64,000 nt of DNA from Candidatus Latescibacterota bacterium (lineage in GTDB: Bacteria; Latescibacterota; UBA2968; GCA-2709665). Numbering within the stretch: the stretch's first letter is position 1; each line of letters starts with the position of its first letter. The notes under the pieces are model-generated. The model did no database searches and was not told the origin of the DNA. It saw nothing but the letters and a program-made list of their open reading frames with translations. Both the position numbers and the translations under genes were made by a program. Below, one piece after another: positions 5,883 through 24,129 of this stretch. The stretch is taken from positions 5,152,001 to 5,216,000 of the forward strand of contig OZ241917.1 of the NCBI GenBank assembly GCA_965203805.1, read 5' to 3'.

Positions 5883-6884
5883 TCAATCCGATCGCGTCGC
5901 GGGAGAGGGATAATCTTCGACCATCCAGCAGGCCACGTGGCGGCTGCCGGCGGTCGGTTCCAGGCGCGGTTCGTCCGTTACACACACGTCTTCCGCCAGG
6001 GAACACCGGGGCGCAAACCGGCATCCGTCGGGAAAACGGGTCGCGTCGGGCACCGTGCCCGGGATCACGGACAGCCGGTTCTTCTCTTCGCTGAGCGTGG
6101 GTATGGATTCCAGCAAGCCCCTCGTGTAGGGGTGCTGAGGGCTTGCGAAGATCTCGTCCACCGTTCCGGTCTCCACGATCTTCCCGGCGTACATGACCGC
6201 CACGCGGTCCGCAACTTCAGCGATGACTCCCAGGTCGTGGGTGATCATCAGGACGGCCATTCCCAATTCCTTCTGAAGCCGGTCCAGAAGTTCCAGAATC
6301 TGTGCCTGAATGGTCACGTCTAGCGCCGTTGTGGGCTCGTCGGCGATCAGCAGTTCCGGGTTGCACGAAAGGGCCATGGCAATCATCACCCGCTGGCGCA
6401 TGCCTCCGGAGAGCTGGTGAGGGTACTCGTTTGCCCGTTGTCCGGGATCCGGAATGCCCACCAGATTGAGCATGTCCACGGTTTTGGCCCGGGCGGCGTC
6501 CCTGGCGAGGCGCTGGTGGAGCATGACGGCTTCGTCAATCTGGTCTCCACAGGTAAACACAGGGTTGAGGCTGGTCATCGGCTCCTGGAAAATCATCGCG
6601 ATGTCGTTGCCCCTGACGCCCTGGAATGCGGCTTCATCCAGACTCAGCAGATTCCGTCCGTTGAATCGGATCTCGCCCTGGACGATTTCACCCGGCGGTT
6701 CCGGTAACAGACGCATGACGGACAGCGACGTAACGCTCTTTCCGCATCCGGATTCTCCCACCAGGCCCAGGGTTTCGCCCTTGTCCAGGGTGAAGGAGAC
6801 GCCATCCACGGCTTTGGCGATGCCGCCGTCCGTATGGAAGTGCGTCTTCAGGTCTTCGACGGTCAGAAGGGGCTCCGACATCAT
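5883..6884 (-). CDS. Oligopeptide/dipeptide ABC transporter ATP-binding subunit (OppD/DppD-like)
   Basis: [32 protein letters not shown]. Confidence 0.93.
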
Positions 6885-6970: not shown

Positions 6971-7714
6971 TCAGAAAAGCGGCGGGTTCAGATGCAGCCA
7001 GTCTTCAAGCAGGAAATCCACGCGGCCGATGAGCAGGGAGATACGCGCCATGACGGTATAACCGAACGAAGCGCCGAACGAGACCATCAGGAAATAGATG
7101 CCCACCCTGGAGATGCCGCCCACAACCCCTTTATGTTCGACGGAGAAATAAAAGTAGATGAGTACGCTCACCACGCCGATCAGGATGATCGCCGGGTTCA
7201 GTACGGCCCATCCGAAGTCCGCCGACGCCAGAGAAAACGGGCTTATTGTGGGTTCGATCTGTTCGATGATGAACGAGGCCACGCGGCGGGGGATGGCCAG
7301 GCCCGCGCCGAGCCCCACGAAGAAAGCGAAGGAGATGCGGCTGAGCCACACCCCTCTGCCGAAAAAGCGGGTCATCAGGAAAAGGCCGAGACATGCCGGA
7401 ACGAGCACCAGCCATTTGACGCCCGTGTCGGCCGGTGGACGGAAGAGAGGATTCACCACGTCCACCAGGATGCTCTGGTACCAGACCAGCGCCAGCTCGT
7501 ATGCGGCAACAACGCCCACGTAGAGGTGCTCGGCCAGCTTGAAGAGCGGATTGTCCCTGTAGAGGAAGCTGTACAACGCGAGTGTGATCCCGGCGGCGAG
7601 GATAATCCCGAACCCCGACCAGTCTGCCTGCAGATCGCCGGCGGCCAGCAGATACCCGTTTACGACCGCAAAGAGCAGAATGAAAACCGGGAAGACGATG
7701 TTTTCTCTATTCAT
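6971..7714 (-). CDS. Uncharacterised multi-pass membrane protein of the GlmL-associated module
   Basis: About 7 hydrophobic segments; YSFLYRDNPLFKLAEH and FGASFGYTVMARISLL motifs; 4-nt overlap with the upstream gene. Confidence 0.7.
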   Translation of the reverse strand: MNRENIVFPVFILLFAVVNGYLLAAGDLQADWSGFGIILAAGITLALYSFLYRDNPLFKLAEHLYVGVVAAYELALVWYQSILVDVVNPLFRPPADTGVKWLVLVPACLGLFLMTRFFGRGVWLSRISFAFFVGLGAGLAIPRRVASFIIEQIEPTISPFSLASADFGWAVLNPAIILIGVVSVLIYFYFSVEHKGVVGGISRVGIYFLMVSFGASFGYTVMARISLLIGRVDFLLEDWLHLNPPLF

Positions 7715-8550
7715 GCCGCTGTTCCTTTACGAACGGCGCTTCGGTGCAGAAAGTAGACGACGTTTCCCAGCAGGATAAACCCGATGATGACCATATGTGC
7801 GACGGATTGCGGACGCATGCCGCTGACCGCCACGTCTCTCTTGCCCACCAGGGCTTCGTATTCCGCGGCGCCGGCGAGCCCGCCGATGAGGCCGTCGAGC
7901 TGCCGGGACTGAAGGAAGGGGAAGAAATCAGGCGCCATCACGGCGGTACATCCGGCCCCCAGGGGGAACCGGTATCGTTCCTGCCCGTACGCGATCCATT
8001 CGTCGACGCCGGGAAAGCCGGCGGCCAGGTCGATCACGTAATCGAAGTCTTTCAGCGACCGCAGATTGCGGGTGAGAGACATTTCGGAAGTGGCGACGCC
8101 CCGGCTGTCTTCGGGGAACGCGCCGCGCAGGTCCTGGCCCATATTCAGGATCAGTATCGGGCCGCCGGCCTTGAACCCGAGGAACGCGTAGTCCGTGCCG
8201 TTCACGCGCCCGTATTCCTCTCCCACCGTCTCAAACGCCTGCATGGCAAGCCCCACGGCTTCGGCGATGAGCGTCACGCCCACCACGCGGATATTCCGGC
8301 TGAAGCAGTGGCGAAGAATGGCCAGAGCCATGGGCTGGAGTTCCGGCTGCGAACTGGGGCCGTAGTCGAAGGAGATGAGCACGACGGCATCGGGATTTCC
8401 GGACAGGCTTTCTATCGAATCGTAGACCGCGCGCACGTTGGGCGTGGCCTTGATGGGCAGTTCGAAGCCGATGAGCAGAGGGATGCATACTGCGAGAAAA
8501 ACGGCCAGGTAGACGATGCGACGGTCGATGTTCAGAAGGCGTTCGATCAT
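7711..8550 (-). CDS. Uncharacterised membrane-anchored alpha/beta protein of the GlmL-associated module
   Basis: True start is MIERLLNIDRR at 8550 (overlap with previous stop, GGAGAGGAAGG upstream); N- and C-terminal TM helices; GLIGGLAGAAEYE motif. Confidence 0.7.
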   Translation of the reverse strand: MIERLLNIDRRIVYLAVFLAVCIPLLIGFELPIKATPNVRAVYDSIESLSGNPDAVVLISFDYGPSSQPELQPMALAILRHCFSRNIRVVGVTLIAEAVGLAMQAFETVGEEYGRVNGTDYAFLGFKAGGPILILNMGQDLRGAFPEDSRGVATSEMSLTRNLRSLKDFDYVIDLAAGFPGVDEWIAYGQERYRFPLGAGCTAVMAPDFFPFLQSRQLDGLIGGLAGAAEYEALVGKRDVAVSGMRPQSVAHMVIIGFILLGNVVYFLHRSAVRKGTAA

Positions 8551-9203
8551 TGTCCTTCCTCTCCGAGATAGGATCGCTCGATGCCGAAGATGATTCGCAG
8601 GGCCGTGGCGATCGCACCGAGGCTCACGCCCAGCAGGATGCCGCGCCGGGCGGCCAGGTTGGGGGTGGCCATCAGCCACTGGGACACGGCGGGCAGGTGT
8701 TCCGAGATGAGCGCGCCGATGGGTACCCGGCCGAGCATGACCAGCAGGGCGGCAAGAAGGAGCACAACGGCTTCGGCGGAACGGGCGCGGAACGTGCGGT
8801 AGGCGGCGGAAGCGATAAAGAAGGCAAGCAGAGAGAACATGGTGGCGCCGCCGGCCACGTTGATATGCGTATACATCCAGTTCAGATCCAGCCCGTCTCC
8901 CGGCGCGAGCGGTTGAAGCGGACCGCTGCCATTGTTGTAGACAGCCAGTGCGATCGTGACGATGAATCCGATGTACACCACGGCGCTGAACGCCCATCCG
9001 GCCTGTTTGCGTCTGATCCGGTGCCAGTGCATATGCAGCAGGCTGTGGATACCCAGAAACAGGGCGAAGGCGGCGATGATCCGGTACCAGGTTGAGGTTG
9101 TGATCTCCACCGGTTGGGCAACCGGAATATAGTAGGTGAAGATGCCGATGACACCGGCTGCGAAAGCCACGAGCAACGGCAGGGTGCGCTGCAGGAAATA
9201 CAT
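8547..9203 (-). CDS. Uncharacterised multi-pass membrane protein of the GlmL-associated module
   Basis: About 6 TM helices; FFIASAAYRTFRARS and LRIIFGIERSYLG motifs. Confidence 0.7.
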   Translation of the reverse strand: MYFLQRTLPLLVAFAAGVIGIFTYYIPVAQPVEITTSTWYRIIAAFALFLGIHSLLHMHWHRIRRKQAGWAFSAVVYIGFIVTIALAVYNNGSGPLQPLAPGDGLDLNWMYTHINVAGGATMFSLLAFFIASAAYRTFRARSAEAVVLLLAALLVMLGRVPIGALISEHLPAVSQWLMATPNLAARRGILLGVSLGAIATALRIIFGIERSYLGEEGQ

Positions 9204-9249
9204 TCGATTTTCTCCGGAAGACGTGAACGTGGATGACTTGCCTGCGCCG

Positions 9250-10524
9250 TCAGCCCGGCAACGACAAGAAGCCGATACCGGCCAGTATCGTACCCAGCAT
9301 CAGCATCAGAATGATGACTCCCTTCCCGAGGTCCTGTCCTTTCAGGCTTCCCAGAAGCTTTGGATCCCTCGAGAGATAGGCGCTGGCGGCGTAGAGTTCC
9401 TCCCCCATCAGCGTGTAGTCACAGGTCGTGATGAAGAATGGAAGCTGCGTATAGGCATCGGTTGCCGCGATCTGGATGGCGCCGGTTGTGGAGCCGGTTT
9501 CCGCCAGGAGCAGGGATTCGGCATAGAAATATCCCATCAGGAGATTGGCCGCCGGTTTCTCCCGAACCATCAGGCCCTCGAGCGCGGCCGCGTAGCTGAA
9601 CTGGTCCGCGGCCGCCAGAAAGACGTTGTCCGGATTGAACGCGTCCGGTCGTCCGGCTTCGATGCAGGATTCCTTCACCACCTCCTGGCTTACGGACATG
9701 ACAATCGGATCCCGGTTACCCACCTTGAGCTGGGTATCGTACTCCGCGGTTCGTTTTGCGACCTGACCGAGGATGTTCACGGCGGCAATGGTCGAGGGGC
9801 TGCCCATGTCCTGCAGGCCGTGTACGAAAAGCACCGGCTTTCCCATTTCGGTTGCCCTGCCAAGGGCCTCGTCAAGGGCGTCCAGGCCGGCCAGCCGTCG
9901 GATATAGAGGTCCTTGCGCCGGGCAAGCCGAATGTAAACGAGGATGAGAACGGAGAAGAGCCCCGCCAACGCGAAATTTCCCAGCTTGCTCGTGTTGAAA
10001 TAATTGCCGCGGGCCCGGGCCTCGACAACCGTTTGGCCCGCGCCGTGGACTCCGATGCGAATGAAATATGCCTTGCCGTTCTCGATCCTGATCCGGTCCG
10101 GTCCTTCAGGATCCCGGTAGGACTCGATGAGGGCGAAGTGACGATTGCGGTTCTCCTCCCCGGTACCGAACGTGGCGGGCTCATCGGCCATCGTCGGCGT
10201 TGTTTTCGGATCCAGTTCCGCAACGTGATAAAACGGGCCTTCCGCCCGTTCGGAGATGCCGATGCAGTAGCGCACGCTGTCCGGCAGGACATCGTACCGC
10301 CGCCAGGTGAGCGTGATGCTGCGTCCCTGGTCGGCCGGCGTGTCGAAGGCCCGGACGTCGGCCGGCGCCGTTTCGGCGCCGTCGGCAGGCGCGGCTGCGA
10401 TGACAAGAGCAAGAAGGAGCAAGAGATGAGCCATTTCGGGTCTCCTGGCGGTCCGATTCCGGCGCGCCGGATTTGCCGGTAGAGCGAAGGAACCCGCGCG
10501 CTGGCGGTTGTGTTCCGGTTGCAT
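9250..10524 (-). CDS. DUF6754-like membrane protein with N-terminal FnIII-like extracytoplasmic domain (start may be 10434, MAHLLL)
   Basis: Signal-like MAHLLLLLAL; PADVRAFDTPADQGRSITLTW FnIII-like strand; IRRLAGLDALDEALGRATEMGKP and GEELYAASAYLS motifs. Confidence 0.65.
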   Translation of the reverse strand: MQPEHNRQRAGSFALPANPARRNRTARRPEMAHLLLLLALVIAAAPADGAETAPADVRAFDTPADQGRSITLTWRRYDVLPDSVRYCIGISERAEGPFYHVAELDPKTTPTMADEPATFGTGEENRNRHFALIESYRDPEGPDRIRIENGKAYFIRIGVHGAGQTVVEARARGNYFNTSKLGNFALAGLFSVLILVYIRLARRKDLYIRRLAGLDALDEALGRATEMGKPVLFVHGLQDMGSPSTIAAVNILGQVAKRTAEYDTQLKVGNRDPIVMSVSQEVVKESCIEAGRPDAFNPDNVFLAAADQFSYAAALEGLMVREKPAANLLMGYFYAESLLLAETGSTTGAIQIAATDAYTQLPFFITTCDYTLMGEELYAASAYLSRDPKLLGSLKGQDLGKGVIILMLMLGTILAGIGFLSLPG

Positions 10525-11645
10525 TACGATTCGATCCTTTCGGCGTTTGCGCGGGGTATCACGGCGCGTTGTCCGTTTTCGAACTGAACTTCCAGCACGC
10601 GTACCCTGATTTCCGATTCCACGGGCGCCAGTTCGGAAGGCAGCGAAGTGACGACGCCGGTCTTTCCGAAGTAGGGCGCGCGTATCGTACGGATCGGATC
10701 TCCAACGGAGAGGCCTTCGCGCGCCACGGATGCCTCGGCGACGGTTGAGCGGCCCGTGTCCGGTACGATGATTTCTGGACGAAGCACGCCCGCCCGGATC
10801 TGGGTTGCCCCCGACATCGAGGCTTCGTCTCCGTTTCTTTCGTTCAGAATGTCGAATGTCTTTCGTGCCATGGCGATGTCGCCGAATCCTTCCGTGACCA
10901 CAACGGTAAGGTCGATTTCCTCGGCGCCGGTAATGGCCACGCCGAGGTCATAACCCAGCAGGCTCCGCAGGTCGTGGTCGCGGATACCCCCCCCAATGAG
11001 ACCGGCCGCGCCGATTTCCCGCGCCTTCCGGATCAGATCCAGGGTGATCATCCCGCCGGCGATGAGAATCTTTCCGGTACACGAGGCGTCGATCCGGTCT
11101 TCCGGAAGCCGCTCGCCGGGGCTTGTGACAAGCATATGGATCGCACCCCAGCTCTCGCCGCCGATTCCGAAAATGCCCTGTAGAAAAGCGCCGACGGTTT
11201 CAACCACGACCCCTTCGCCCGGTATGGACTCCACAACGGCGCCGTCCACGTAGGCTTTCACCTGCACGGGACGGGGCGGACCGCGCAGAATGACCTGGCC
11301 GGTAACCGGAGAAACGCTTTCCACCGTTCCGGTGACCGGCGACTCAACCGTGGTCTTGAACCACCTGATGAACGGCCGGGTTTCGGCGAGAGGTTCCCCG
11401 GACTCGACCGGCTCCCCCTCGCTCTTGAGCATTAAGGTCGGCAGTTCGTCGGGGGTGACGCCCAGCCTGTTGACCAGGTTCAGGGTGGTCACGTCGCCGG
11501 GCAGTTCGGTCCGGGCGACCACCCGGTCGCGCTGCACGGATTCTCCCTCTGATACCAGCACCTCACCGGTGAGTGGGAGTTGCCGTCTCTTTCGTATGGT
11601 TGCCCTGCGGGTGACCCGCAGTCCGGGGGTGTACGTATGCGCCAT
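10524..11645 (-). CDS. Conserved hypothetical protein with barrel-sandwich-hybrid-like repeats and C-terminal KOW-like motif
   Basis: MAHTYTPGLRV start; VSEGESV, SEGEPVESGEPLA and SPVTGTVESV repeats; SGATQIRAGVLRPEII; VGDPIRTIRAPYFGKTGVV. Confidence 0.7.
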   Translation of the reverse strand: MAHTYTPGLRVTRRATIRKRRQLPLTGEVLVSEGESVQRDRVVARTELPGDVTTLNLVNRLGVTPDELPTLMLKSEGEPVESGEPLAETRPFIRWFKTTVESPVTGTVESVSPVTGQVILRGPPRPVQVKAYVDGAVVESIPGEGVVVETVGAFLQGIFGIGGESWGAIHMLVTSPGERLPEDRIDASCTGKILIAGGMITLDLIRKAREIGAAGLIGGGIRDHDLRSLLGYDLGVAITGAEEIDLTVVVTEGFGDIAMARKTFDILNERNGDEASMSGATQIRAGVLRPEIIVPDTGRSTVAEASVAREGLSVGDPIRTIRAPYFGKTGVVTSLPSELAPVESEIRVRVLEVQFENGQRAVIPRANAERIES

Positions 11646-11709
11646 GGGTCAGGGTTCCGCAACCGTCTTGTCGTGCCCCTGCGGAGACAATGGTCGGGCG
11701 GTGCCGTCC

Positions 11710-12780
11710 TCAGACTTTCATCTTCGGATCCAGTGCGTCTCGCAGGCCGTCGCCCAGCAGATTGTACAGGGTGACGGTGATAAAGATCGCGAACCCGGGT
11801 ACGATCACCAGCCACCACGCCGAAATATTGTTCCGGGCGCCCGCGAGTATCGCGCCCCAGGTGATGGCCTCGGCGGGTACCCCAATGCCCAGAAAGCTGA
11901 GGCCGGATTCGGCCAGGATGGCGCCCGCCACGCCGAACGCCGCCGGAATGAGTACGGGCGCGATTGCGTTTGGCAGAATGTGGATGAACATGATCCGGCC
12001 GCTGGAGTATCCCAGGCTCTTGGCCGCGGAAACAAAGTCGTAACTCCTCACCTGCAGAAACTGCGACCGGGTGAGACGCGCGATCCCGACCCAGCCCGTA
12101 AAGCCGAGAATGATCATCACGAAGAAGAGGCTGGGCGGGAAAAACGCGGCGACCGTGATAATCAGAAAGAGGGCGGGGATGGCGGCCCAGAGCTCGAAAA
12201 CACGGGAGAGAATCAGATCGGTCCAGCCCCCGAAATAACCGGCCAGCGCGCCGAGGGCGACGCCGATGATCATTGAGATCGCCACGGAGACCAGTCCGAT
12301 GGTGAGCGCGTAACGGGTTCCGTGGATCAGCCCCGAAAGTACGTCCCGGCCCAGCCGATCCGTACCCAGAAAATGCGCCGCGCCGGGGGGCATGTATTTG
12401 TCGCCGAGATGAACGTCGCTGGGACCGTAGGGAACGGGCGGGAATATCGCCGATTCGGACCTCAGGCGTTTGAAGTTCTTCCTTCTTCTTAGCGGCGCCG
12501 GCCAGTCGGCCAGCCCGAGATAGACGGCGTACTGGCGAAAGGCGGGGAAATAGGTCTTGCCCCTGTACTTCATATAGTACGGTTTGTTGCCCGCAAGAAA
12601 ATCCGCGAAGACCGCCGTGAACGCGAGGACGCCGATCGCCGCCAGGCTGACGAGCGCCGGACGGTTTTTCCTGAACTGCCGCCAGACCAGCTTCGAATAG
12701 GTCTGGCTCTCCTGATCAGTCCCGGAGTCAGTCGATGCAGCGTCCGTTTCGGCGATTTCGCTGGATTCAGCGGTTAGCAT
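11710..12780 (-). CDS. Peptide ABC transporter permease (OppC/DppC-like)
   Basis: HFLGTDRLGRDV, FVSAAKSLG (EAA loop), HILPN, LGDGLRDALDPK; start re-called at ATG 12780. Confidence 0.92.
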   Translation of the reverse strand: MLTAESSEIAETDAASTDSGTDQESQTYSKLVWRQFRKNRPALVSLAAIGVLAFTAVFADFLAGNKPYYMKYRGKTYFPAFRQYAVYLGLADWPAPLRRRKNFKRLRSESAIFPPVPYGPSDVHLGDKYMPPGAAHFLGTDRLGRDVLSGLIHGTRYALTIGLVSVAISMIIGVALGALAGYFGGWTDLILSRVFELWAAIPALFLIITVAAFFPPSLFFVMIILGFTGWVGIARLTRSQFLQVRSYDFVSAAKSLGYSSGRIMFIHILPNAIAPVLIPAAFGVAGAILAESGLSFLGIGVPAEAITWGAILAGARNNISAWWLVIVPGFAIFITVTLYNLLGDGLRDALDPKMKV

Positions 12781-12784
12781 GGGT

Positions 12785-14086
12785 CTATCCCTGCAGACGG
12801 GAAAACTCGATTCGCGGATCCACAACTTTCAGGAGGATATCGGCAAGCAGAATGCCAAGCAGCGAAAGGAACGAACCGATGGTCAGAATGGCCATGACCA
12901 TGGGATAGTCGCGCACGAGCACGGATTGCACGCCCAGATATCCGAGGCCCGGAATGGTGAATATGGTCTCGATAAAGACCGAACCTGCGATGATGGCCGG
13001 AAGCAGATTCGCCAGGATCGTTACGATGGGGATCAGAGAGTTGCGGAAGACGTGCCTCAGAACCACGACTTTCTCAGGCAGCCCCTTCGCTCTGGCGGTA
13101 CGTACGTAGTCCAGCCTGAGGTTCTCCAGCATGCTGGTGCGCATGAAACGGGAAAGGCCGGCGAAGCTTGCGTAGCTGGAGGCCAGGACCGGCATGGCCA
13201 GGTGGTGTGCGTGGTCGGTGAGCAGGCGCCAGAAGCCCCAGTCGGATGAGGCGTCGAGAGACTGGATGCCCGAGGCGGGAAACCAGTACAGAAAATCCTT
13301 GTTGCAGAGAAAGACGATCAGCAGCATGCCAACCCAGAATGAAGGCATCGACCACAGGATGAAGGTTCCGGTGGTGAGCGTGCGGTCGGTCCGGGTGTCC
13401 TGTTTCACGGCCAGCCAGATACCGAGTGGAAGTCCGATGGCATAGGCGATGATCAGGCTGATGACGTTGATTTCAATCGTGATGGGCACGCGCGCCAGGA
13501 TATGGGAGATGACCGGCTGCTGGTCTTTGAAGGAACGTCCGAAATTGAGTGTGACAAAGCGCCGGTCGAAGCAATGGAAGAGCAGCAGGCCGGCGCCGGT
13601 ATACTCGTAGTTGTTGTCGAGCTTGACGGTCTTGCTCTCCCAGAAAGAGGAAAGGACGAGCGCCTTCGCCTCGTCCGGGTGACGTTCCTCGAAACTGCGA
13701 AGGAACCGGGCTTTACGCGCCTCGTATTCCAGTGAGGCCAACTCGCTTCTTTCCGAGGTGTCCAGTTTCGAGAGATAGATGTCGACGCGGCGGCCCATGC
13801 GTTCGAAGTTGCTGAGCGGCTCCACGTGAAGAACCAGGCTTGACAGCCAGTTCAGGTACTGAACGTGCAGCGGCCTGTCCAGGCCGAGCTGTCGGCGAAG
13901 GTCCTCGCGCGTTTTTTCGAAATCGGACTGCCGATCCGTGGAAATGCCCTCCTCCCCCGCCATGCCGCCGAGAAAGAAGTCGACCGGGTCGCCGGGGGCG
14001 AGATGCATCACCAGGAAGGAAATCAGGGTGATGCCGATCATCGTCGGGATCATCAGCAGGCTGCGCTGCAGGATGTACTGGATCAT
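12785..14086 (-). CDS. Peptide ABC transporter permease (OppB/DppB-like) with enlarged periplasmic loop
   Basis: APGDP, GLDRPLHVQY, YVRTARAKGL, HVFRNSLIP, DPRI. Confidence 0.92.
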   Translation of the reverse strand: MIQYILQRSLLMIPTMIGITLISFLVMHLAPGDPVDFFLGGMAGEEGISTDRQSDFEKTREDLRRQLGLDRPLHVQYLNWLSSLVLHVEPLSNFERMGRRVDIYLSKLDTSERSELASLEYEARKARFLRSFEERHPDEAKALVLSSFWESKTVKLDNNYEYTGAGLLLFHCFDRRFVTLNFGRSFKDQQPVISHILARVPITIEINVISLIIAYAIGLPLGIWLAVKQDTRTDRTLTTGTFILWSMPSFWVGMLLIVFLCNKDFLYWFPASGIQSLDASSDWGFWRLLTDHAHHLAMPVLASSYASFAGLSRFMRTSMLENLRLDYVRTARAKGLPEKVVVLRHVFRNSLIPIVTILANLLPAIIAGSVFIETIFTIPGLGYLGVQSVLVRDYPMVMAILTIGSFLSLLGILLADILLKVVDPRIEFSRLQG

Positions 14087-14165
14087 CTGACTTCAGGCCT
14101 CTCCGTGCCGTCGTCTGTTCATTCGTGATTGCAACAGGATCCGGTCGTCTCCCCTGCCCCAGTCC

Positions 14166-14331
14166 TATCAGCCCGTTGATAAAGTCCATCCGGTCTGCGT
14201 CCGGCCTTTGTGGCCGAATTACTGCGTTGCGCTCCCTCCCCGAATCCAGGGATTCGCGTCGGTCGCGCGCCTTGTCTTCGGCCACAATGACTCGGCCTCG
14301 CCTGCAGAGCGACTTTTTCAACGGACTGTTA
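14166..14331. mobile_element. MITE-like non-autonomous element between oppA and oppB
   Basis: Terminal inverted repeats TATCAGCCCGTTGATAAAGTC (14166-14186) and GACTTTTTCAACGGACTGTTA (14311-14331), 18/21 match; internal stem TTGTGGCCGAA...TTCGGCCACAA; no ORF. Confidence 0.6.
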
Positions 14332-16173
14332 TTGGTACAACCGGTTCGAGGCGCCTACCCACCATTCCTGGGTATTCGCGCCGAAGGCATACCAGTTGTC
14401 ACCCGCGAAACGCCTGCTGTAAGATGTGGCGGTGCGGGACTTCCACAGAAACGTATACGGTTGCTCGTCGTGCAGGATTTCCTGGAAACGCCGGTAAAGC
14501 TGAATTCGCTTGTCCATATCGAACTCCCTCCGGTAGGATTCCAGGATGCGGTCGACCTCCTCGTTCTTGAAGCCGATGTAATTCGACCCCTGCCCCTCGG
14601 ACTGCGAGGAGTGCCAGATCTGATAGGAATCCGGCGGCGTACGCAGGCTGCCGGTCCATCCCAGCGTGCAGGCGGCGAAGTCCTTCTTGCGAACCACCCG
14701 GTCCAGAAAGATGGTCCAGTCCAGTTCGCGCACCTCGCAGACGATTCCGATGTCCTGAAGTTCATACTGCAGCGTCAGGGCGATGTCTTTGCGGAGCTGG
14801 TTGCCGGAGTTGACCAGGAACTCGAACTTGAAGGGGCGTTTCCTGCCGTCGATGACCTTGTCCAGGATGCCGTCGTTGTCGCTGTCGGCCCAGCCGGCCT
14901 CCTCCAGAAGGTCAAGCGCTCTGTCGGGATCGTAGGCATGGGGCTCCAGGCTGTGATTGTATTCGGGCCGGAATTTGTGGATGGGGCTCTCAACGGCTTC
15001 CGCCAGACCGAACATGAGGTTCACCACCATGCTCTCACGGTCGGTGAGATACGTCATCGCTCTGCGCACGCGCTTGTCGCGAAAGATGGGGTGCGCATTG
15101 TTCCAGCCGATGTACACGTACCCCGAAGAATAGATTACGCTCTTCTTGAATCGCTTGATAAAATCCGGAGACCAGCTCTTGTCCTTGAACTGAAGAGGCC
15201 TGAGCCCGAAATAGTCGATATTGCCGTTCGTGAGCTCGATAAACGCGGCCTCCTCATCGTTCACGATCTTGAAGACGATCTTTTCCACGTAGCCCTTGGG
15301 CATCAGATCGGTCCGGTCCCCTCCCCAGTAGTTGGGATTGCGTGTCAGTATCACCCTCTGCCCGGTGACCACGTCTTCGTCCCAGTCTGCCACGAGGTAC
15401 GGCCCGGAACCGAGCATCTTCCGGTGGAATCCGGTGTTGAATCTCTCGGCGAACTGCTGTACACGCTCCGCGTGGGGGCCGCTTTCCCAGGAACCGTCGA
15501 TGAGACTTCCGATGTCGACGGGATCCATCAGGCCGTCGGGGTCGTAGAAGTGCTTGGGAAGAATCTCCATGCTGCCCAGGGAGATATTGTTTCTGAAATA
15601 GGGTTCCCGGCAGACGAAACTGATTCGGTATTTGCCCTCCTGTTCGACGTCGCTGATGGCCGCGAAATAGTTCCGGCGAGAAGCTGCCAGAACTTTCGGG
15701 TTCTTGATGACCTTGATGCTGAAGAGGACGTCGTCCGCCGAGAGCGGCTTGCCGTCTGCGAAGTGGACGTCCTCGCGAAGGTCGAACGTGTAGATGAGCT
15801 TGTCTTCCGATACCGCCGGGGGCCCTTTCGCGACCAATCCTCTGAGATTGTAAGGCGATTCGTTCTCGATGTCCAGCAGCGACTCGAAGATGTACTGGTG
15901 TACCGTGGAAGCGCCTCTGTCGTTGGAAATGTACGGATTGAAATTCTCCGGATCCGAAAGAAAGTGCTGAACCATCCAGTCGCCGAATTGCGGCTCGTCG
16001 TCGCCGGAGTACATGGCGGGCGCTCTTTCCGTGCCATCCAGTACGATTGCCGGAGCTTCCTTCGTATCCAATAGCGTTCTTTGAACCTTCTGCCAGGAGG
16101 TTTCGTCCTTGCCTGCAGCCGCAGAGACGAAAAACAACCCGAGGATCGCCAGTGCGCACACTTTTGCCATCAT
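14329..16173 (-). CDS. Peptide ABC transporter substrate-binding protein (OppA/AppA-like, SBP family 5)
   Basis: Signal peptide; DPENFNP, FDLREDVHFADGKPLSADDV, GSGPY, FRDKRVRRAM, YDPDRALDLLEEAGW. Confidence 0.92.
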   Translation of the reverse strand: MMAKVCALAILGLFFVSAAAGKDETSWQKVQRTLLDTKEAPAIVLDGTERAPAMYSGDDEPQFGDWMVQHFLSDPENFNPYISNDRGASTVHQYIFESLLDIENESPYNLRGLVAKGPPAVSEDKLIYTFDLREDVHFADGKPLSADDVLFSIKVIKNPKVLAASRRNYFAAISDVEQEGKYRISFVCREPYFRNNISLGSMEILPKHFYDPDGLMDPVDIGSLIDGSWESGPHAERVQQFAERFNTGFHRKMLGSGPYLVADWDEDVVTGQRVILTRNPNYWGGDRTDLMPKGYVEKIVFKIVNDEEAAFIELTNGNIDYFGLRPLQFKDKSWSPDFIKRFKKSVIYSSGYVYIGWNNAHPIFRDKRVRRAMTYLTDRESMVVNLMFGLAEAVESPIHKFRPEYNHSLEPHAYDPDRALDLLEEAGWADSDNDGILDKVIDGRKRPFKFEFLVNSGNQLRKDIALTLQYELQDIGIVCEVRELDWTIFLDRVVRKKDFAACTLGWTGSLRTPPDSYQIWHSSQSEGQGSNYIGFKNEEVDRILESYRREFDMDKRIQLYRRFQEILHDEQPYTFLWKSRTATSYSRRFAGDNWYAFGANTQEWWVGASNRLYQ

Positions 16174-17975
16174 TTGCCTCCTTGTGACGCCTGTTGACGT
16201 GGATAAAGGTCCAATGCCCGGTTCCAGGCGGCAACCCGGCCGGCCGGATCCGCGTCCGGAAACGGAAGCGGTCGGCCGCGGCCGTCCATTATCAGGCCGG
16301 CCACGCCGCCCTGGACGGTCCGGCGAATCGTCTGACCGGGCCCGGCGCCCGCGTCCCAGCCCGACTCGGGATGCAGGCTGACATCGGCCTCCTGACCGGG
16401 GCCCAAGTCGAACATGTGGATGTTTCCGACTTTCAGATCGCCTGAACCGGACCCGTCGGCCCTGGCGATTTCGTAAGTGGCGCAGACTTCACCTGGTTTG
16501 CCATCGCCGGACGGCGCAACGCACGTTCCCAGATCCACAAGACAGTCCCGTTCGAATACCTCGGCGGCGGCCTGTTCATTGACGCTTGTGAGCACACCCA
16601 GATGGGGCATCATGAAGATGCTGTCGACCGCCAGCCGGGTAAATCCCTGAGGCTGGAAGGCGTCGATCAGCATGGCCGCCGACTGCGCCCGCCGGGGCGC
16701 GTGTGAAAGAACGCCGCCGCTTCCCACCAGGAGGTTCAGGTCCGGCATGTGAATCAGGCTTTCGCCCCCGCCGGTCTGGTCGAATGCATCGGAGAGGGTG
16801 CGTTCCGTCTGCACGCCCTTGAGGCCCACGGCCAGGGCGCGGTGCTGGTCGAACGCCAGGCGCAGTGCCTCGCGGGCGATGGCCTGCTCGAGTTGCAGTT
16901 CCTCCAGGGTCTGGGGTACGGTCGTCGGACGGATCATCTTGTTCTTGACGCGGTCCCTGAGGTCGGCCTCATCGATTTCAAAAGGCACCCAGCGCATCAC
17001 GTTTGCCAGACCGGCCTCGGCCAGCACGTTGGAGATGCTGTATGACATGCCCAGGTTGGCGCTTACGGTCCGGTTAAACGTCCCATCGAATACACTGAAG
17101 ACATCGGTGGTCGCGCCGCCGATGTCAACGCCGACGACGTTGATGTTCCGGCGGCGGGCGACCGTCTCGATAAGCAGGCCGACCGCTCCGGGTGTGGGCA
17201 TGATGGGCGCACCGGCCCATTCCATCAGCTTCCTGTACCCGGGCGCCTGCGCCATCACGTGTTCCAGGAAGAGGTCGTGGATCACCTGCCGCGCCGGACC
17301 GAGGTTTTCGCGTTCCAGCAGGGGGCGGATGTTGTCCGTGAGTGTCAGCGCGGTTTTTTCGCCCAGAACCTCGCGAACGTTCTCTCTCGCTTCCCTGTTT
17401 CCGGCATAGATCACGGGAAGCCGGAAACCGGCGCCGAACCGGGGCCTTGGGTCTGCCGCGGCGATGAACTCGGCGAGTTCCACAACGTGGCTCACGGTGC
17501 CGCCGTCCGTTCCCCCCGAGAGAAGCACCATGTCCGGTCGCAGATGGCGGATGCGTTCGATCTTCTGGTGTGGCAGGCGGCCGTCGTTGGACGCGAGGAC
17601 GTCCATCACGATGGCGCCCGCGCCGAGGGCCGCCCGCTGGGCGCTTTCTCCGGTCATCGCCTGGACAACCCCGCCCACCATCATCTGGAGGCCGCCTCCT
17701 GCGCTGCTCGTGGACACATAGATGTCGACGCCGCGGCGGCCATTTGCGGGCGTGAGAATGCGTTCGCCTTCCAGGATGGCGCGCCCGGAGAGTTCTTCAA
17801 CCTCCTGGATGGCGTTGAGGACGCCTCTGGTGACGTCTTCGAACGGAGCCTCGACCGTTGTGGGCGCCTCACCGCGGCAGGTCTGCCGGTAGCATTCTCC
17901 CTCTTTTTCTATAAGGATGGCCTTGGTGGTCGTGCTGCCGCAGTCCGTGGCGATGATGACGTCCGGCTTATCCAT
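16170..17975 (-). CDS. Glutamate mutase L (GlmL/MutL)-like ASKHA-superfamily ATPase
   Basis: DCGSTTTKA (phosphate 1), SSAGGGL, LLSGGTDGG, VDIGGATTDVFS (phosphate 2), GSGGVLSHAP. Confidence 0.85.
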   Translation of the reverse strand: MDKPDVIIATDCGSTTTKAILIEKEGECYRQTCRGEAPTTVEAPFEDVTRGVLNAIQEVEELSGRAILEGERILTPANGRRGVDIYVSTSSAGGGLQMMVGGVVQAMTGESAQRAALGAGAIVMDVLASNDGRLPHQKIERIRHLRPDMVLLSGGTDGGTVSHVVELAEFIAAADPRPRFGAGFRLPVIYAGNREARENVREVLGEKTALTLTDNIRPLLERENLGPARQVIHDLFLEHVMAQAPGYRKLMEWAGAPIMPTPGAVGLLIETVARRRNINVVGVDIGGATTDVFSVFDGTFNRTVSANLGMSYSISNVLAEAGLANVMRWVPFEIDEADLRDRVKNKMIRPTTVPQTLEELQLEQAIAREALRLAFDQHRALAVGLKGVQTERTLSDAFDQTGGGESLIHMPDLNLLVGSGGVLSHAPRRAQSAAMLIDAFQPQGFTRLAVDSIFMMPHLGVLTSVNEQAAAEVFERDCLVDLGTCVAPSGDGKPGEVCATYEIARADGSGSGDLKVGNIHMFDLGPGQEADVSLHPESGWDAGAGPGQTIRRTVQGGVAGLIMDGRGRPLPFPDADPAGRVAAWNRALDLYPRQQASQGGK

Positions 17976-18315
17976 TCAGTCGGTTTTCCGCCTCCACAAG
18001 AGAATCGATCAGTGTCTGCACACTCCGGCGCTTCTCCAGAAAACGCACGAATCGACTGTATTCCTCGCCTGAGAAGATAAGGTTGACAAAGGGCGAAAGA
18101 AAAGTCAAAAACTGACTGCCTATAAAGTTGAACGGCCGTCCGGCCTCGAGTACCATCAGGGCGGGAGTGGTCATTTGCCGGCGAACCACGAACGCCGCCA
18201 TTTTCGCCGCGAGTGCCCGCTCTTCCTCCGTGATGCGGTCATCCGGCGGGTCGACGGCGAAAGCGTGTTCGAACCAGACCCTAAGGCGCTGAATTCGCGA
18301 GGCGGGCTTCGACAT
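17968..18315 (-). CDS. Small conserved hypothetical protein of the GlmL-associated module
   Basis: Start MSKPASR at 18315; VVRRQMTTPALMVLEAGRPFNFIGSQFL motif; stop overlaps the GlmL-like start. Confidence 0.6.
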   Translation of the reverse strand: MSKPASRIQRLRVWFEHAFAVDPPDDRITEEERALAAKMAAFVVRRQMTTPALMVLEAGRPFNFIGSQFLTFLSPFVNLIFSGEEYSRFVRFLEKRRSVQTLIDSLVEAENRLNG

Positions 18316-18721
18316 ACGCGATGACCTCGTCACGATTGTCGCGAAACCGCAGGAAACAGCCCCGAAACGGATCGAGCCGGTGCGGGCGGGCGAAAGGGCT
18401 GAGGAAGACGCCGTCCGGCAGAACCGCACGCCGGCGTATCCGGTCCCAGGGGGTTGTCCGCCGCGCGCCCAGGTGGGCGATCAGGACGTGCTCCTGGAGG
18501 AGTGCGTATCGTGTGGGAGCAAAGTAGCGGGACATCGAGGCCGCAAGCAGTACGGCCGCCAGGAAACCGAACGCGGTCGTCTCGAAGGCGAGGGCCACCA
18601 GCACCGGCGCCACGAGGATGATCAGGACGAGCAGGGCCGTCTTCACGGGCGGCTCATGCCGGAGGGGATGGACGGTCCAGTGGAGTTCGGGGGCGGTTGG
18701 AGGGGTTCCCGGTCTGTCCAT
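18281..18721 (-). CDS. Small membrane protein (2 TM helices plus PH-like soluble domain)
   Basis: LHWTVHP, two TM helices, YFAPTRY, DGVFLSPF..RLDPFRG; start re-called at ATG 18721. Confidence 0.6.
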   Translation of the reverse strand: MDRPGTPPTAPELHWTVHPLRHEPPVKTALLVLIILVAPVLVALAFETTAFGFLAAVLLAASMSRYFAPTRYALLQEHVLIAHLGARRTTPWDRIRRRAVLPDGVFLSPFARPHRLDPFRGCFLRFRDNRDEVIAYVEARLANSAP

Positions 18722-18803: not shown

Positions 18804-19679
18804 TCAGATAATACGCCGGACGATCCGGGATTCCTGTGTCGCGTCGCCCAGGTTCCAGGCATCCGTACCGTACTTTGTTTCGACAAGGTGCTCCGCGTCG
18901 ATCTTTTCCTCCGCGGTCAAGCATGATTCAGTCAGTGCGATGCCCAGGGTCATCTCAAAGCCTTCACGCAGGGCGCAAGCGACCGCGTTGAATCCTGCGG
19001 GTCGATCGGCTTCCGCAAGTGAGATGGTGTGTCGGTCCAATTCCCGGCGGAAGCGTTCTTTCAGGGGCTGACCGCGGTCCGGCATCAGATCGATGAGTCG
19101 CTTGTGTTCCGGGCCCAGCAGCAGCGAGCCGTGCTGAAGGAGCACGTCGCCGAGGCGTCGCTGGGCGCTGCCGATGATCTTTCTGCCGTCGAGGGTCACC
19201 TCGTACTGCGTGGTACTCGAAAAACAGGGAGACGTCAGGCCCTCACCCCGCGGCGACGCGGCGGGAGCGCGGCGGGGCTCGAACTCGGCTGCGACGCCGA
19301 GGAGTTTCAGCCCCGCAACCAGACAGGCGCTGATCTTCCGGTACGACTCCTGAATGGATCCGCCCAACAGCGGATCGTCGGCCCGGCACAGTACGCTGTA
19401 GGTGAGTTCATTCCAGTGGAGTACGGCGCGTCCGCCGCTCGGTCGGCGCACCAGATGGATTCCGCGATTTCGGCATCGATCCGCATCGACTTCGCGACCG
19501 ATCCGCTGGGCATAGCCGAACGATACGGCCGGCGGCGTCCAGCCGAAAGTCCGGACCGTGGGCGGCGAGCCACCGACCGCAATGCCTCGCACAATGGTTT
19601 CGTCTACGGCCATATTGAAAAAGGCGTTTCCCGATCCGGTGTTCAGGAAACGCCACGGACGTAATCCGGTGTCCGGCAT
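18804..19679 (-). CDS. Lipoate-protein ligase family (LipM/LplA-like octanoyltransferase)
   Basis: NMAVDE, RRPSGGRAVLH, ELTYS, PCF, KIIGSAQRR, LQHGSL. Confidence 0.88.
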   Translation of the reverse strand: MPDTGLRPWRFLNTGSGNAFFNMAVDETIVRGIAVGGSPPTVRTFGWTPPAVSFGYAQRIGREVDADRCRNRGIHLVRRPSGGRAVLHWNELTYSVLCRADDPLLGGSIQESYRKISACLVAGLKLLGVAAEFEPRRAPAASPRGEGLTSPCFSSTTQYEVTLDGRKIIGSAQRRLGDVLLQHGSLLLGPEHKRLIDLMPDRGQPLKERFRRELDRHTISLAEADRPAGFNAVACALREGFEMTLGIALTESCLTAEEKIDAEHLVETKYGTDAWNLGDATQESRIVRRII

Positions 19680-24071: not shown

Positions 24072-24129
24072 AATGGCCCGACAACGTGTCTTCGCATAGG
24101 TACGGGCCACCGGCTCCGGAATAACAGCA

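Follow-up and report, generated by a model that had tools for sequence, protein, structure and literature searches.

Eight genes in a contig of Candidatus Latescibacterota bacterium (OZ241917.1) belong to a conserved module, whose six core genes co-occur in the same order in many phyla, usually accompanied by smB and often by smA. The favoured reading, to which we give a little less than an even chance, is that the module encodes an undescribed membrane-associated ATPase system acting as an ATP-driven trans-membrane machine and not a reactivase of a B12-dependent mutase. No function is assigned to the module in Pfam, NCBIfam or the searched literature, which makes no mention of it, as the first-pass annotation had suggested. 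Six of the eight module proteins have no curated family match. The genes concerned and their neighbours in the window (the whole stretch of 64,000 nucleotides that was analysed) are as follows.

18804–19679, minus strand: LplA-like lipoate/biotin ligase family gene (PF21948, E 1.3e-33)
18281–18721, minus strand: smA, membrane protein of ~146 aa with an ATG at 18721; accessory module member
17968–18315, minus strand: smB, ~115 aa, alignment motif PA..FLES.RP.NFLGSQ; near-core member
16170–17975, minus strand: GlmL-like ASKHA ATPase, 601 aa (PF13941)
14329–16173, minus strand: OppA-like substrate-binding protein (PF00496, E 2e-75); lineage-specific insertion, outside the conserved module
12785–14086, minus strand: OppB-like permease (BPD_transp_1, E 1.7e-38); lineage-specific
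11710–12825, minus strand: OppC-like permease (BPD_transp_1 and OppC_N), starting at a TTG at 12825 or an ATG at 12780; lineage-specific
10524–11645, minus strand: P373 (MAHTYTPGL...), barrel-sandwich, central alpha/beta and KOW-like domains; ATPase partner
9250–10524, minus strand: DUF6754 membrane protein (PF20539, E 3e-113)
8547–9203, minus strand: TM218, polytopic membrane protein with ~5 hydrophobic segments
7711–8550, minus strand: P281, starting MIERLL; TM helix, domain of ~225 aa, TM helix
6971–7714, minus strand: TM247, polytopic membrane protein with ~5 hydrophobic segments at the threshold used
5883–6884, minus strand: OppD (ABC_tran and oligo_HPY); lineage-specific neighbour
4892–5881, minus strand: OppF (ABC_tran and oligo_HPY); lineage-specific neighbour

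The membrane topologies given here derive from a crude hydropathy scan. The interval 6971–18721 holds eleven genes, namely the eight of the module and three of an Opp/Dpp-type ABC importer (11710–16173). The first-pass annotation had described eight co-oriented, partly overlapping genes; all eight do lie on the minus strand, but the three Opp genes in the interval had been overlooked. Starts and stops overlap at six junctions: smA/smB (35 nt), smB/ATPase (8 nt), ATPase/oppA (4 nt), P373/DUF6754 (1 nt), TM218/P281 (4 nt) and P281/TM247 (4 nt). The interval is part of a run of 15 co-oriented genes from rnc (20390) to oppF (4892), spaced by at most 242 nt. The GC content of the module (0.60–0.64) is like that of most of the window outside the 32–50 kb island (0.56–0.66).

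A search seeded with P373 confirmed at least 593 relatives among the 600 candidate stretches listed, the best 80 of which were kept as loci, each visible for 10 kb on either side of the seed. These best 80 loci span at least 14 named phylum-level groups and share the order (smA)-smB-GlmL-like ATPase-P373-DUF6754-TM218-P281-TM247. Forty-nine loci have flanks of at least 3200 nt upstream and 4500 nt downstream, and 41 of them contain the complete six-gene core, from the ATPase to TM247. The first-pass annotation had suggested such a neighbourhood survey, naming absent co-occurrence as evidence against the module; the genes do co-occur, and its suggestion that the set recurs in many uncultured bacteria is borne out. 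Where at least 2500 nt of upstream sequence is available (66 loci), the ATPase was found in 61, on the same strand as P373 and less than 1 kb from it in 56; the median gap between the two genes in the surveyed loci is 90 nt. Homologues of smB were found in 49, and those of smA in 25, of the 63 loci with enough upstream flank (at least 3200 nt); no smA occupies its usual position in Nitrospirota and Scalindua loci. Clustering of ORFs from the 80 loci and the window recovered TM218 in 55, P281 in 52 and TM247 in 50 of the 81 sources. Some core genes are missing nearby in eight of the 49 well-flanked loci. Locus L002 is incomplete only because its contig stops inside the Opp genes. P373 is solitary in L035, L048, L057 and L059, while L017, L038 and L080 contain the ATPase and P373 without membrane genes, so the membrane part is not always adjacent.

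The clustering of the module genes is far beyond chance. The same unbiased clustering of ORFs recovered no other neighbour conserved beyond single phyla; neighbours vary by phylum, with a Memo-like gene in Nitrospirota, gcvP in Eisenbacteria and WOR-3, and Opp genes in Latescibacterota, and tolQR adjoins the module in two loci. The LplA-like gene clustered in 12 of the 81 sources, upstream of the module in Latescibacterota and downstream of TM247 in L054, L066 and L068, and is probably a recurrent neighbour, not a part of the module. In a quick tree of the ATPase, the Latescibacterota (17 rows, support 95) and the Nitrospirota (19 rows, support 99) each grouped together, which indicates mostly vertical inheritance of the module. 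No archaeal record occurs among the sequences retrieved. One Atlas cluster is labelled ‘Bacteria 93%’, which is at most a hint of archaeal members.

The 601-aa ATPase is an ASKHA-fold protein, as the first-pass annotation had proposed: its MutL domain (PF13941, E 1e-128) covers residues 7–478 and scores 430.4 bits against a gathering cut-off of 27, and its nucleotide-binding loops are intact. Mean column identity is 67% among 43 sequences from many phyla, all of which retain D11-G13-S14-T15-T17-K18, D284-G286-G287-T289-T290-D291 and S419-G420-G421. The blocks D11–K18, D284–D291 and S419–G421 are taken here to be the phosphate-1, phosphate-2 and adenosine motifs, and their invariance suggests that the protein uses ATP.

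P373 has more than 8000 homologues, 50–70% identical across phyla, and a mean column identity of 59%. The first-pass description of a barrel-sandwich/KOW protein holds, with an N-terminal barrel-sandwich and a C-terminal KOW-like domain; the AF2 model has a pLDDT of 83.7, and Foldseek returned domain-level matches only. Its N-terminal motif is H-x-Y-T-P-G-L. All 129 sequences compared share P7-G8-L9, T251-E252 and T281-Q282-I283-R284, and the invariant loops read TEGFG, GATQIRAG and LGYDLGVAITG. Within the N-terminal motif, Y5 is replaced by F in three of the 129 sequences and T6 by A in four, which makes the motif unlikely as a universal phospho-acceptor. A role as a lipoyl or biotinyl carrier, raised by the LplA-like neighbour, was rejected. 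The sole candidate lysine, K97, is not strictly conserved (K in 117 of 129 sequences, R in 7, other residues in 5) and lies 9 residues from the next conserved G, where the canonical lysine-to-G spacing of such carriers is 11.

Adjacency, fusions and predicted binding mark the ATPase and P373 as the two parts of a single unit. ATPase-P373 fusions make up about 50 protein clusters of roughly 990–1005 aa and a divergent set of 943–978 aa. Structure prediction of the pair, as proposed in the first-pass annotation, gave a confident complex with an ipSAE of 0.80 (0.79–0.81 between runs), against 0.00 for the best of three controls; the runs share at least 86% of contacts, and the pLDDT of each partner is at least 85. 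Of 157 solved complexes, 116 reached the same value, as did 2 of 215 mismatched pairs; these counts apply only roughly here, as own alignments were used. The PDB contains no sequence relative of either protein, so it is unlikely that the predictor merely reproduced a solved complex. In the predicted complex, the invariant loops of P373 lie over the ATP cleft of the ATPase, whose side of the interface includes S14 in the DCGSTTTK loop, A288 in the DIGGATTD loop and segment 340–360, which carries NKMIRPTT. Invariant residues make up 26 of the 49 predicted interface residues of P373, compared with 102 of 373 overall (Fisher p = 3.6e-5), although the predictor draws on the alignments that also define conservation and the two lines are not independent. 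Invariant positions are not enriched on the ATPase side (19 of 49 vs. 188 of 601, p = 0.15).

The DUF6754 protein comprises an N-terminal hydrophobic helix, an FnIII-like ectodomain as previously annotated, a TM helix, the DUF6754 domain (PF20539, residues 173–418, 377.7 bits against a cut-off of 27) and a C-terminal TM helix. Its AF2 model has a pLDDT of 68.8 and falls below 50 at residues 307–373, so the structure gives no clue to this most conserved stretch of the protein. Long relatives of 743–1475 aa combine a constant C-terminal domain with variable N-terminal regions of fn3, PQQ beta-propeller or HEAT type. A P373-DUF6754 fusion was seen in one truncated sequence (P0121) and may be a read-through artefact. 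No Pfam family matched TM218 (37 members) or TM247 (35 members) even at E ≤ 1; P281 had no match in Pfam, the PDB or the Atlas, and smB had none in Pfam or NCBIfam. The smA protein has one strong hydrophobic segment, with weak, sub-threshold bPH matches in 4 of 22 members. None of the eight module proteins matched the anti-phage families of PADLOC-DB at E ≤ 0.001.

In architecture, P373 is akin to NqrA and RnfC, peripheral subunits of the Na+-NQR and Rnf membrane complexes, in that a barrel-sandwich hybrid is followed by an alpha/beta and a small beta domain. Foldseek matches to NqrA (8acy_A, E 4.8e-4) and RnfC (8ahx_C, E 0.013) span most of P373, with TM-scores of only 0.12–0.13, and some P373 homologues carry precomputed RnfC_N and NQRA_N matches. 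By analogy with NqrA, small polytopic membrane proteins would carry P373 as a soluble subunit. An Rnf or Na+-NQR complex was nevertheless rejected, as the membrane subunits lack homology and P373 is alike over the barrel-sandwich only. In hhalign, the alignment of E. coli RsxC with P373 was confined to the barrel-sandwich motif (33 columns, probability 15%), and TM218 and TM247 showed no similarity to RsxA and RsxE (0.7% and 0.2%). No Rnf-Nqr Pfam match was found at E ≤ 1 among the 37 TM218 and 35 TM247 members. Cysteines among the invariant residues reported for the core proteins are limited to the ATPase (C12 and C478) and the DUF6754 protein (C368); there are none in P373, TM218, P281 or TM247, and no cluster-type cysteine motif is evident.

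Public records call the ATPase ‘glutamate mutase L’, and MutL/GlmL is described, in a passage of PMC4682846, as a chaperone in the reactivation of glutamate mutase. Together with the PF13941 domain and the ASKHA phosphate loops, which are common to the module ATPase and clostridial and enterobacterial GlmL/MutL (e.g. ECs_0763 of E. coli O157:H7 Sakai), this would fit a classical reactivase for an adenosylcobalamin enzyme encoded elsewhere, with the membrane genes as unrelated neighbours. Such a role is very improbable. The ATPase scores below the cut-offs of the GlmL equivalog NF040745 (232.7 bits, cut-off 475), of Or-4 NF040744 (215.1, cut-off 600) and of the GlmL subfamily model TIGR01319 (169.8, cut-off 204.05), and none of 11 sampled representatives of its subfamily reaches the GlmL-family cut-offs. 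Its identity to E. coli O157 GlmL is 29% over residues 7–378, and it differs from genuine GlmL by a C-terminal extension of 123 aa past the MutL domain, by the NKMIRPTT segment, invariant in module ATPases and not conserved in genuine GlmL, and by its regular pairing with or fusion to P373; its association with P373 and the membrane genes persists from phylum to phylum. No B12 mutase was found by Pfam among 15 and 37 window ORFs (at least 100 aa, and excluding some minus-strand ORFs at 22–24 kb), in line with the first-pass annotation. Likewise, tblastn searches with the E. coli O157 proteins GlmE, GlmS and methylaspartase found no matches in the window and 80 loci (1.32 Mb), while the GlmL query matched 66 of these 81 sequences; the module is thus without a neighbouring glutamate mutase in all 81 places, as had been claimed for the window, and GlmL proper was rejected on both the cut-offs and the absence of adjacent glmS/glmE. 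An EutA-type cobalamin-enzyme reactivase was also rejected, since no partner B12 enzyme lies nearby and E. coli EutA aligns over 43 columns at the phosphate-2 loop only (hhalign probability 5%). The idea that the module serves the interleaved Opp/Dpp peptide importer is, if anything, more improbable still. The window does encode a complete set (an SBP_bac_5 binding protein, two BPD_transp_1 permeases and two ABC_tran and oligo_HPY ATPases), with oppABC between the ATPase and P373, oppDF after TM247 and the oppA start overlapping the ATPase stop; none of these genes reaches an NCBIfam equivalog cut-off, the Opp/Nik permease matches also lying below theirs. Opp components adjoin the module in other Latescibacterota as well, namely oppDF alone in L003, L005, L007 and L008 and oppA alone in L006, L010, L014, L015, L016 and L019. 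However, the placement of oppA between the ATPase and P373 is confined to the window and loci L001, L002, L004, L012 and L020, oppDF follows TM247 in Latescibacterota loci only, and no Nitrospirota, Planctomycetota, Zixibacteriota, Eisenbacteria or WOR-3 locus has interleaved Opp genes. Outside loci titled Latescibacterota or Gemmatimonadota there are a few weak, non-adjacent Opp-like matches only. The interleaved form is a single four-row branch inside Latescibacterota (support 90 in the quick ATPase tree). Opp interleaving is limited to this subclade and is not part of the conserved module; the importer, co-transcribed with the module in the window lineage, would reflect a late, local rearrangement.

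Two further explanations accept the module as a unit. It could be a membrane-tethered small-molecule enzyme, in which a composite ATPase-P373 site phosphorylates or ATP-activates a metabolite and the membrane proteins deliver or remove the substrate, as in group translocation. The ATPase has a further match to Hydantoinase_A (E 4.1e-7), and hydantoinase/oxoprolinase-type ASKHA enzymes act in this manner; the P373 loops over the ATP cleft and the column identities of both proteins, typical of tight active sites, point the same way. We consider this explanation unlikely, as no metabolic gene is conserved beside the module, and the variable DUF6754 ectodomains and PilZ fusions suit an envelope machine better. 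Those same ectodomains, being of ligand-binding type, and the PilZ fusions could also speak for a membrane-anchored scaffold or sensor, with the actin-fold ATPase as a nucleotide- or ligand-controlled switch resembling ROK-type regulators or FtsA/PilM-type platforms. N-terminal HTH domains are rarely fused to the ATPase (GntR in P0361, XRE in P0387); such fusions would agree with this, but each is a single cluster that could be a gene-calling merge, the invariant ATP-binding loops fit catalysis, and no other signalling output domain, such as a kinase or cyclase, is conserved nearby. A scaffold or sensor is rather improbable.

Under the favoured reading of a trans-membrane machine, the ATPase-P373 heterodimer would be the cytoplasmic motor, with the invariant loops and N-terminal HxYTPGL peptide of P373 capping the nucleotide cleft. 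ATP binding, hydrolysis or phosphoryl transfer would reshape P373, whose barrel-sandwich and KOW-like domains would couple the motor to a complex of four inner-membrane proteins; a contact of P373 with the membrane proteins is suggested by gene order and translational coupling. The membrane complex would pass work outward through the variable DUF6754 ectodomain and possibly the P281 domain, the output being substrate movement or a conformational change in the envelope. A role in transport, export or group transfer, as the first-pass annotation had proposed, or in force transmission, is a conjecture for membrane proteins that have no homologue of known function. In mechanotransmission systems such as FtsEX/MacB, membrane proteins are driven by an ATPase on the cytoplasmic side and act through their outward-facing domains. 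The logic proposed here is similar, as a working analogy without homology: the module ATPase is of the actin fold, not ABC, and its membrane proteins have no FtsX or MacB match. A PilZ domain occurs in a minority of P373 proteins and in three clusters is fused directly ahead of the HAYTPGL motif, where c-di-GMP might gate the motor. Alg44 and BcsA are PilZ-gated envelope machines, and the N-terminal PilZ on the barrel-sandwich P373 suggests comparable c-di-GMP control; unlike in those systems, genes for glycosyltransferases or polysaccharide export are not conserved near the module.

It is possible, and proposed here only tentatively, that the module represents a new class of primary membrane machine, in which an actin-fold ATPase and a barrel-sandwich/KOW partner power four membrane proteins of new families, with c-di-GMP gating in some lineages. 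If so, the GlmL/hydantoinase-type ATPase family would gain its first membrane motor, one that occurs in Nitrospira, anammox bacteria, Latescibacterota and many candidate phyla but is missing from standard model organisms.

The module lies in a run of 15 co-oriented minus-strand genes, of which rnc (start 20390) is the first and oppF (end 4892) the last; no gap exceeds 242 nt. Family assignments from Pfam and NCBIfam are given below in transcription order.

Genes of the rnc–oppF run in the window
19683–20390, minus strand: RNase III (rnc), first in transcription order
18804–19679, minus strand: LplA-like ligase
18281–18721, minus strand: smA, small protein
17968–18315, minus strand: smB, small protein
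16170–17975, minus strand: GlmL/MutL-family ATPase, 601 aa
14329–16173, minus strand: OppA-like
12785–14086, minus strand: OppB-like
11710–12825, minus strand: OppC-like
10524–11645, minus strand: P373, 373-aa protein with an N-terminal HxYTPGL motif
9250–10524, minus strand: DUF6754 membrane protein
8547–9203, minus strand: TM218, membrane protein
7711–8550, minus strand: P281, membrane protein
6971–7714, minus strand: TM247, membrane protein
5883–6884, minus strand: OppD
4892–5881, minus strand: OppF, last in transcription order

At six junctions (smA/smB, smB/ATPase, ATPase/oppA, P373/DUF6754, TM218/P281, and P281/TM247), the start of one gene overlaps the stop of the gene before it. The eight co-oriented genes described by the first-pass annotation are all present and correctly described, but the three ABC-importer genes interleaved with them had gone unmentioned, and the importer's two ATPases lie just past the lower edge of that interval. 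Between 4500 and 20500, promoter-like sites occur at the same level as in shuffled sequence. Terminator-like sites are more frequent (24 vs. an expected 13.0 in shuffles); most are short stems within coding sequence, and they give no usable operon boundary. Upstream (20643–25887) is the common yceD ... fabH ... fabF-rnc arrangement.

Relatives of P373 number more than 8000 in the searched length band and are still 50–70% identical across phyla. A scan of 185,579 species genomes (one genome per species), seeded with an alignment of 28 P373 relatives (A1), found a relative encoded in at least 593 of them (593 of 600 candidate stretches). The best 80 of these, flanks of up to 10 kb per side included, were taken as loci L001–L080. 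By record titles, these best 80 comprise at least 14 phylum-level groups: Latescibacterota, Gemmatimonadota, Nitrospirota (including Nitrospira lenta), Planctomycetota (Scalindua, Brocadiia), Zixibacteriota, Eisenbacteria, WOR-3, Stahlbacteria, Hydrothermota, Ignavibacteriaceae, Bdellovibrionales, Poribacteria, Dormiibacterota, and Synergistia. The list is skewed towards the window's relatives because only the best 80 were kept. Carriers include nitrite-oxidising Nitrospira and anammox Scalindua/Brocadiia.

When the window's 15 proteins were compared with the 80 loci by tblastn, the order (smA)-smB-ATPase-P373-DUF6754-TM218-P281-TM247 recurred. Among loci whose flanks reach at least 3200 nt upstream and at least 4500 nt downstream, 41 of 49 have all six genes from the ATPase to TM247, and the earlier expectation that the gene set recurs across genomes is borne out by this neighbourhood survey. 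Of the eight exceptions, L002 is cut off by a contig end within Opp genes; the ATPase–P373 pair of L017, L038, and L080 has no membrane genes nearby; and L035, L048, L057, and L059 have P373 alone. Where at least 2500 nt is available upstream, the ATPase is found in 61/66 loci, on the same strand and within 1 kb in 56/66, with a median ATPase–P373 gap of 90 nt; where the upstream flank is at least 3200 nt, smB is present in 49/63 loci and smA in 25/63. Mean column identity of the ATPase across phyla is 67%. The module is large, strongly conserved, and widespread. Its inheritance looks mostly vertical: in a quick maximum-likelihood tree of 59 ATPase rows (sequences below 580 aa dropped; L001 and L002 absent), the Nitrospirota ATPases form one group of 19 rows with a support of 99.

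With 430 bits over residues 7–478, the ATPase is a match to Pfam MutL, and its ATP-binding loops are intact. It scores under every curated NCBIfam cut-off (GlmL, 232.7 vs. 475; Or-4, 215.1 vs. 600; TIGR01319, 169.8 vs. 204.05), and none of 11 sampled ATPase-family representatives reaches the GlmL cut-offs. Genuine GlmL was represented by that of E. coli O157:H7 Sakai; PMC4682846 describes the glmS-glmL-glmE cluster of this strain, which is also annotated in the RefSeq record. The window's ATPase shares 29% identity with Sakai GlmL, over residues 7–378 only. As a tblastn query, Sakai GlmL found matches in 66 of 81 sequences (the 80 loci and the window) at 26–31% identity. GlmE, GlmS, and methylaspartase gave no tblastn match in the window or in the 80 loci (1.32 Mb), in agreement with the initial remark that the window holds no glutamate mutase subunits. 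The ATPase is a Pfam MutL member that fails the tests for GlmL proper, and the lack of a nearby mutase gene, together with the sub-cut-off GlmL scores, argues that the module is not a glutamate-mutase helper. Kinship with EutA-type reactivases was rejected, as just one ATP-binding loop aligns.

An exhaustive search of 1.84 billion representatives (clusters at 50% identity) turned up 786 clusters of ATPase relatives with E ≤ 1e-30, out of 3045 with E ≤ 1e-3. Most of the top 150 measure ~600 aa or ~960–1050 aa; the others are shorter sequences that seem to be partial and a small number of longer fusions. Subfamily members, including fusions of the ATPase to P373, are labelled “glutamate mutase L” or “TIGR01319 family” in NCBI and JGI records; the former name is arguably misleading for this subfamily, given the findings above. 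Rare N-terminal additions, each in a single cluster, are a GntR helix-turn-helix (HTH; P0361), an XRE HTH in an HTH-ATPase-P373 fusion (P0387), a peptidase M1 domain (P0314), and a TSP3 repeat (P0308). All of these could be gene-calling merges.

The ATPase and P373 are one unit, on the basis of their adjacency, fusion, predicted complex, and interface conservation. About 50 of the 66 longer P373 relatives are ATPase-P373 fusions of ~990–1005 aa (Planctomycetota, Neomarinimicrobiota), several clusters of which hold 70–223 member sequences, and a divergent set of 943–978 aa is found in Aegiribacteria and Fermentibacteria. In the fusion P0123, a ~25-residue linker is followed by “...KAHSYTPGLRV”. 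Prediction of the ATPase with the 373-aa protein, a check proposed by the first-pass annotation, yielded an ipSAE of 0.80 (runs 0.79, 0.80, and 0.81) against 0.00 for the best of three controls, consistent with a complex. The ipSAE mark is reached by 116/157 solved complexes and 2/215 mismatched pairs, a yardstick that applies only approximately here since own alignments were the input. The runs share at least 86% of contacts, with a partner pLDDT of at least 85. Memory of a solved complex is unlikely because single-sequence or profile searches of the PDB gave no sequence relative of either protein.

The predicted P373 interface comprises T6, I158-F159, D233 to A237, G253 to G255, and T281 to A285, and is enriched in invariant residues (26/49 vs. 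102/373 overall, p = 3.6e-5); enrichment on the ATPase side is not significant (19/49 vs. 188/601, p = 0.15). The latter side involves S14 and A288 (in the invariant DCGSTTTK and DIGGATTD loops), H425 to R428, and segment 340–360, which contains the invariant N345-K346-M347-x-R349-P350-T351-T352; residues of genuine GlmL are unrelated there. Across 129 P373 sequences (the window, 79 loci, 46 fusions, and three PilZ forms), P7-G8-L9, T251-E252, and T281-Q282-I283-R284 are invariant. A universal phospho-acceptor role for Y5 or T6 is unlikely, as these residues are F in 3/129 and A in 4/129 sequences, respectively.

The AlphaFold model of P373 (pLDDT 83.7, pTM 0.68) has an N-terminal beta domain, a central alpha/beta domain (~residues 190–295), and a C-terminal small barrel. 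Confidence is low at the invariant N-terminus and in loops 235–241 and 283–286, as would be expected of parts that take up an ordered form only when a partner is bound. Foldseek searches of the PDB matched the C-terminus to the KOW domains of Spt5/NusG (probability about 1.0) and the centre to RraA, LdcA/MccF, and PA domains, at the domain level only. RraA presumably represents the “swivelling beta/beta/alpha” fold common to mobile phosphoryl-carrier domains. NqrA and RnfC match most of the length of P373 with TM-scores of just 0.12–0.13, and P373 homologues carry precomputed matches to Biotin_lipoyl, RnfC_N, NQRA_N, and related barrel-sandwich families. Homology to Rnf/NQR was rejected, since profiles compared with E. 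coli RsxA, RsxE, and RsxC gave nothing past the barrel-sandwich motif, and the likeness is an architectural analogy only. For P373, the ESM Atlas returned only the protein's own family. Three clusters of P373 relatives (473–475 aa) have a PilZ domain directly before HAYTPGL, and this placement suggests possible c-di-GMP control of the segment predicted to reach the ATPase.

The DUF6754 protein has an N-terminal hydrophobic helix and an FnIII-like domain; a second transmembrane (TM) helix, followed by an Arg/Lys run, then precedes the DUF6754 domain of 250 residues and a final TM helix. Its AF2 model has a pLDDT of 68.8, falling below 50 in the most conserved stretch (residues 307–373), and Foldseek found nothing but FnIII matches, for the ectodomain. 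An FnIII match was likewise the sole PDB hit among sequence and profile searches with P373, the ATPase, DUF6754, and P281. In relatives of 743–1475 aa the C-terminal domain is constant, while the N-terminal region is swapped or extended with fn3, PQQ-type beta-propellers, or HEAT repeats, a variability that would be typical of outward-facing parts. P281 has a ~225-residue domain between two TM helices, and TM218 and TM247 are polytopic. These three have no Pfam, NCBIfam, PDB, or Atlas match (no named Atlas cluster for P281), and their profiles do not resemble RsxA or RsxE. When every family member was scanned against Pfam at lenient thresholds, nothing consistent emerged for these three, and smA gave weak bPH matches in 4/22 members. 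Paralogy of DUF6754 with P281, or of TM218 with TM247, was rejected after BLASTP and hhalign found nothing significant. The case for linking the membrane proteins to ATPase-P373 comes from gene order and from overlaps between start and stop codons. The single P373-DUF6754 “fusion” (P0121) is one truncated sequence and may be a read-through.

No further neighbour is conserved beyond one phylum in an all-against-all clustering of 4041 ORFs. A Memo-like gene lies downstream in 18 Nitrospirota loci. An LplA-like gene is found in 12/81 clustered sources, upstream of the module in Latescibacterota (window 18804–19679) and downstream of TM247 in three Eisenbacteria-like loci (L054, 14548–15129; L066, 12148–12687; L068, 14546–15217). 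Glycine-cleavage P-protein (gcvP) genes precede smA or smB in eight loci (e.g., L054, 3995–7305). These neighbours prompted the idea that P373 is a lipoyl carrier, which was rejected: K97, the sole candidate lysine of its lipoyl-like domain, is not invariant, and the link therefore probably reflects shared ancestry of gene order and not function. In six clustered Zixibacteriota-like and Ignavibacteriaceae loci, the genes for the ATPase and P373 flank one for a ~260-aa protein without a Pfam match, which may be a lineage-specific subunit.

Loci with the ~260-aa extra gene
L074: 2657–3451
L042: 6030–6833
L025: 6773–7552
Also L049, L073, and L077

In 2/80 loci, tolQ and tolR directly follow P373 (L025, 9202–12376, also with tolB; L078, 3080–4218), a possible hint at an envelope connection. 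Downstream of oppF, at 1191–4931, the window encodes a protein of 1245 aa that has PD40 (TolB-like) beta-propeller repeats, and a PD40-repeat protein is kept beside the module in 9/81 clustered sources. In L035, a small protein resembling V-type ATPase subunit F (11125–11448; PF01990, E 3e-14) is encoded after the lone P373, and a TMEM260-like O-mannosyltransferase with TPR repeats precedes the lone P373 in L035 and L057. Elsewhere in the window, GC content falls from ~0.60 to ~0.50 across 32000–50000, a region that looks like an acquired mobile defence island.

Features of window region 32000–50000
33009–34964: GmrSD-type restriction enzyme
35118–36200: DDE_3 transposase ORF
38987–40072: DDE_3 transposase ORF
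40078–42333: Type ISP restriction C-terminal domain protein
44231–45316: DDE_3 transposase ORF, Pfam scores identical to those of 38987–40072
46869–48392: DUF772 transposase
48718–50019: DNA methylase

Among the 80 loci and the window, oppABC separates the ATPase gene from that of P373 in just six cases: the window, L001, L002, L004, L012, and L020. In other Latescibacterota loci, oppDF alone is downstream of the module (L003, L005, L007, L008) or oppA alone is upstream (L006, L010, L014, L015, L016, L019). Within the ATPase tree, four Opp-interleaved rows fall on one side of a branch with a support of 90, inside a 17-row Latescibacterota group with a support of 95. This placement, and the restriction of interleaving to loci titled Latescibacterota or Gemmatimonadota among the 80, indicate a late, local event. 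The same restriction speaks against the module being an accessory of the Opp importer with which it is interleaved here, the least probable of the readings considered. A role as a B12 reactivase, the function implied by kinship with GlmL, is scarcely more credible, no mutase having been found near the module by tblastn in any of the 81 places.

The explanation we favour, tentatively and at somewhat less than even confidence, is that the ATPase and P373 form a cytoplasmic motor in which the nucleotide cycle would reshape P373. P373 would dock on a complex of the four membrane proteins, which would pass the work across the membrane, as transport or as a conformational change of envelope-facing domains. 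The main rival, a membrane-tethered ATP-dependent small-molecule enzyme or group-translocation system, is an appreciable but unlikely alternative to such a motor, and a scaffold or sensor is improbable. A defence system was rejected, as PADLOC gave no match.

Six of the eight module proteins have no curated family, the seventh (DUF6754) belongs to a named family without a function, and the eighth is recorded as “glutamate mutase L”. The module was not found among 8.1 million PMC papers and 0.36 million preprints, subscription journals being outside that search, and no mention of DUF6754, PF20539, PF13941, or TIGR01319 was found in the same sources. As a system the module appears to be new, though it could yet prove to perform a familiar function with a new set of parts. 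Its carriers include organisms central to the nitrogen cycle, and the predicted ATPase–P373 interface, the natural fusions, and the PilZ variants offer experimental handles. Knowing what the module does would allow thousands of genes to be annotated and a systematic mis-annotation to be put right, and could reveal a new coupling of ATP to the bacterial envelope.
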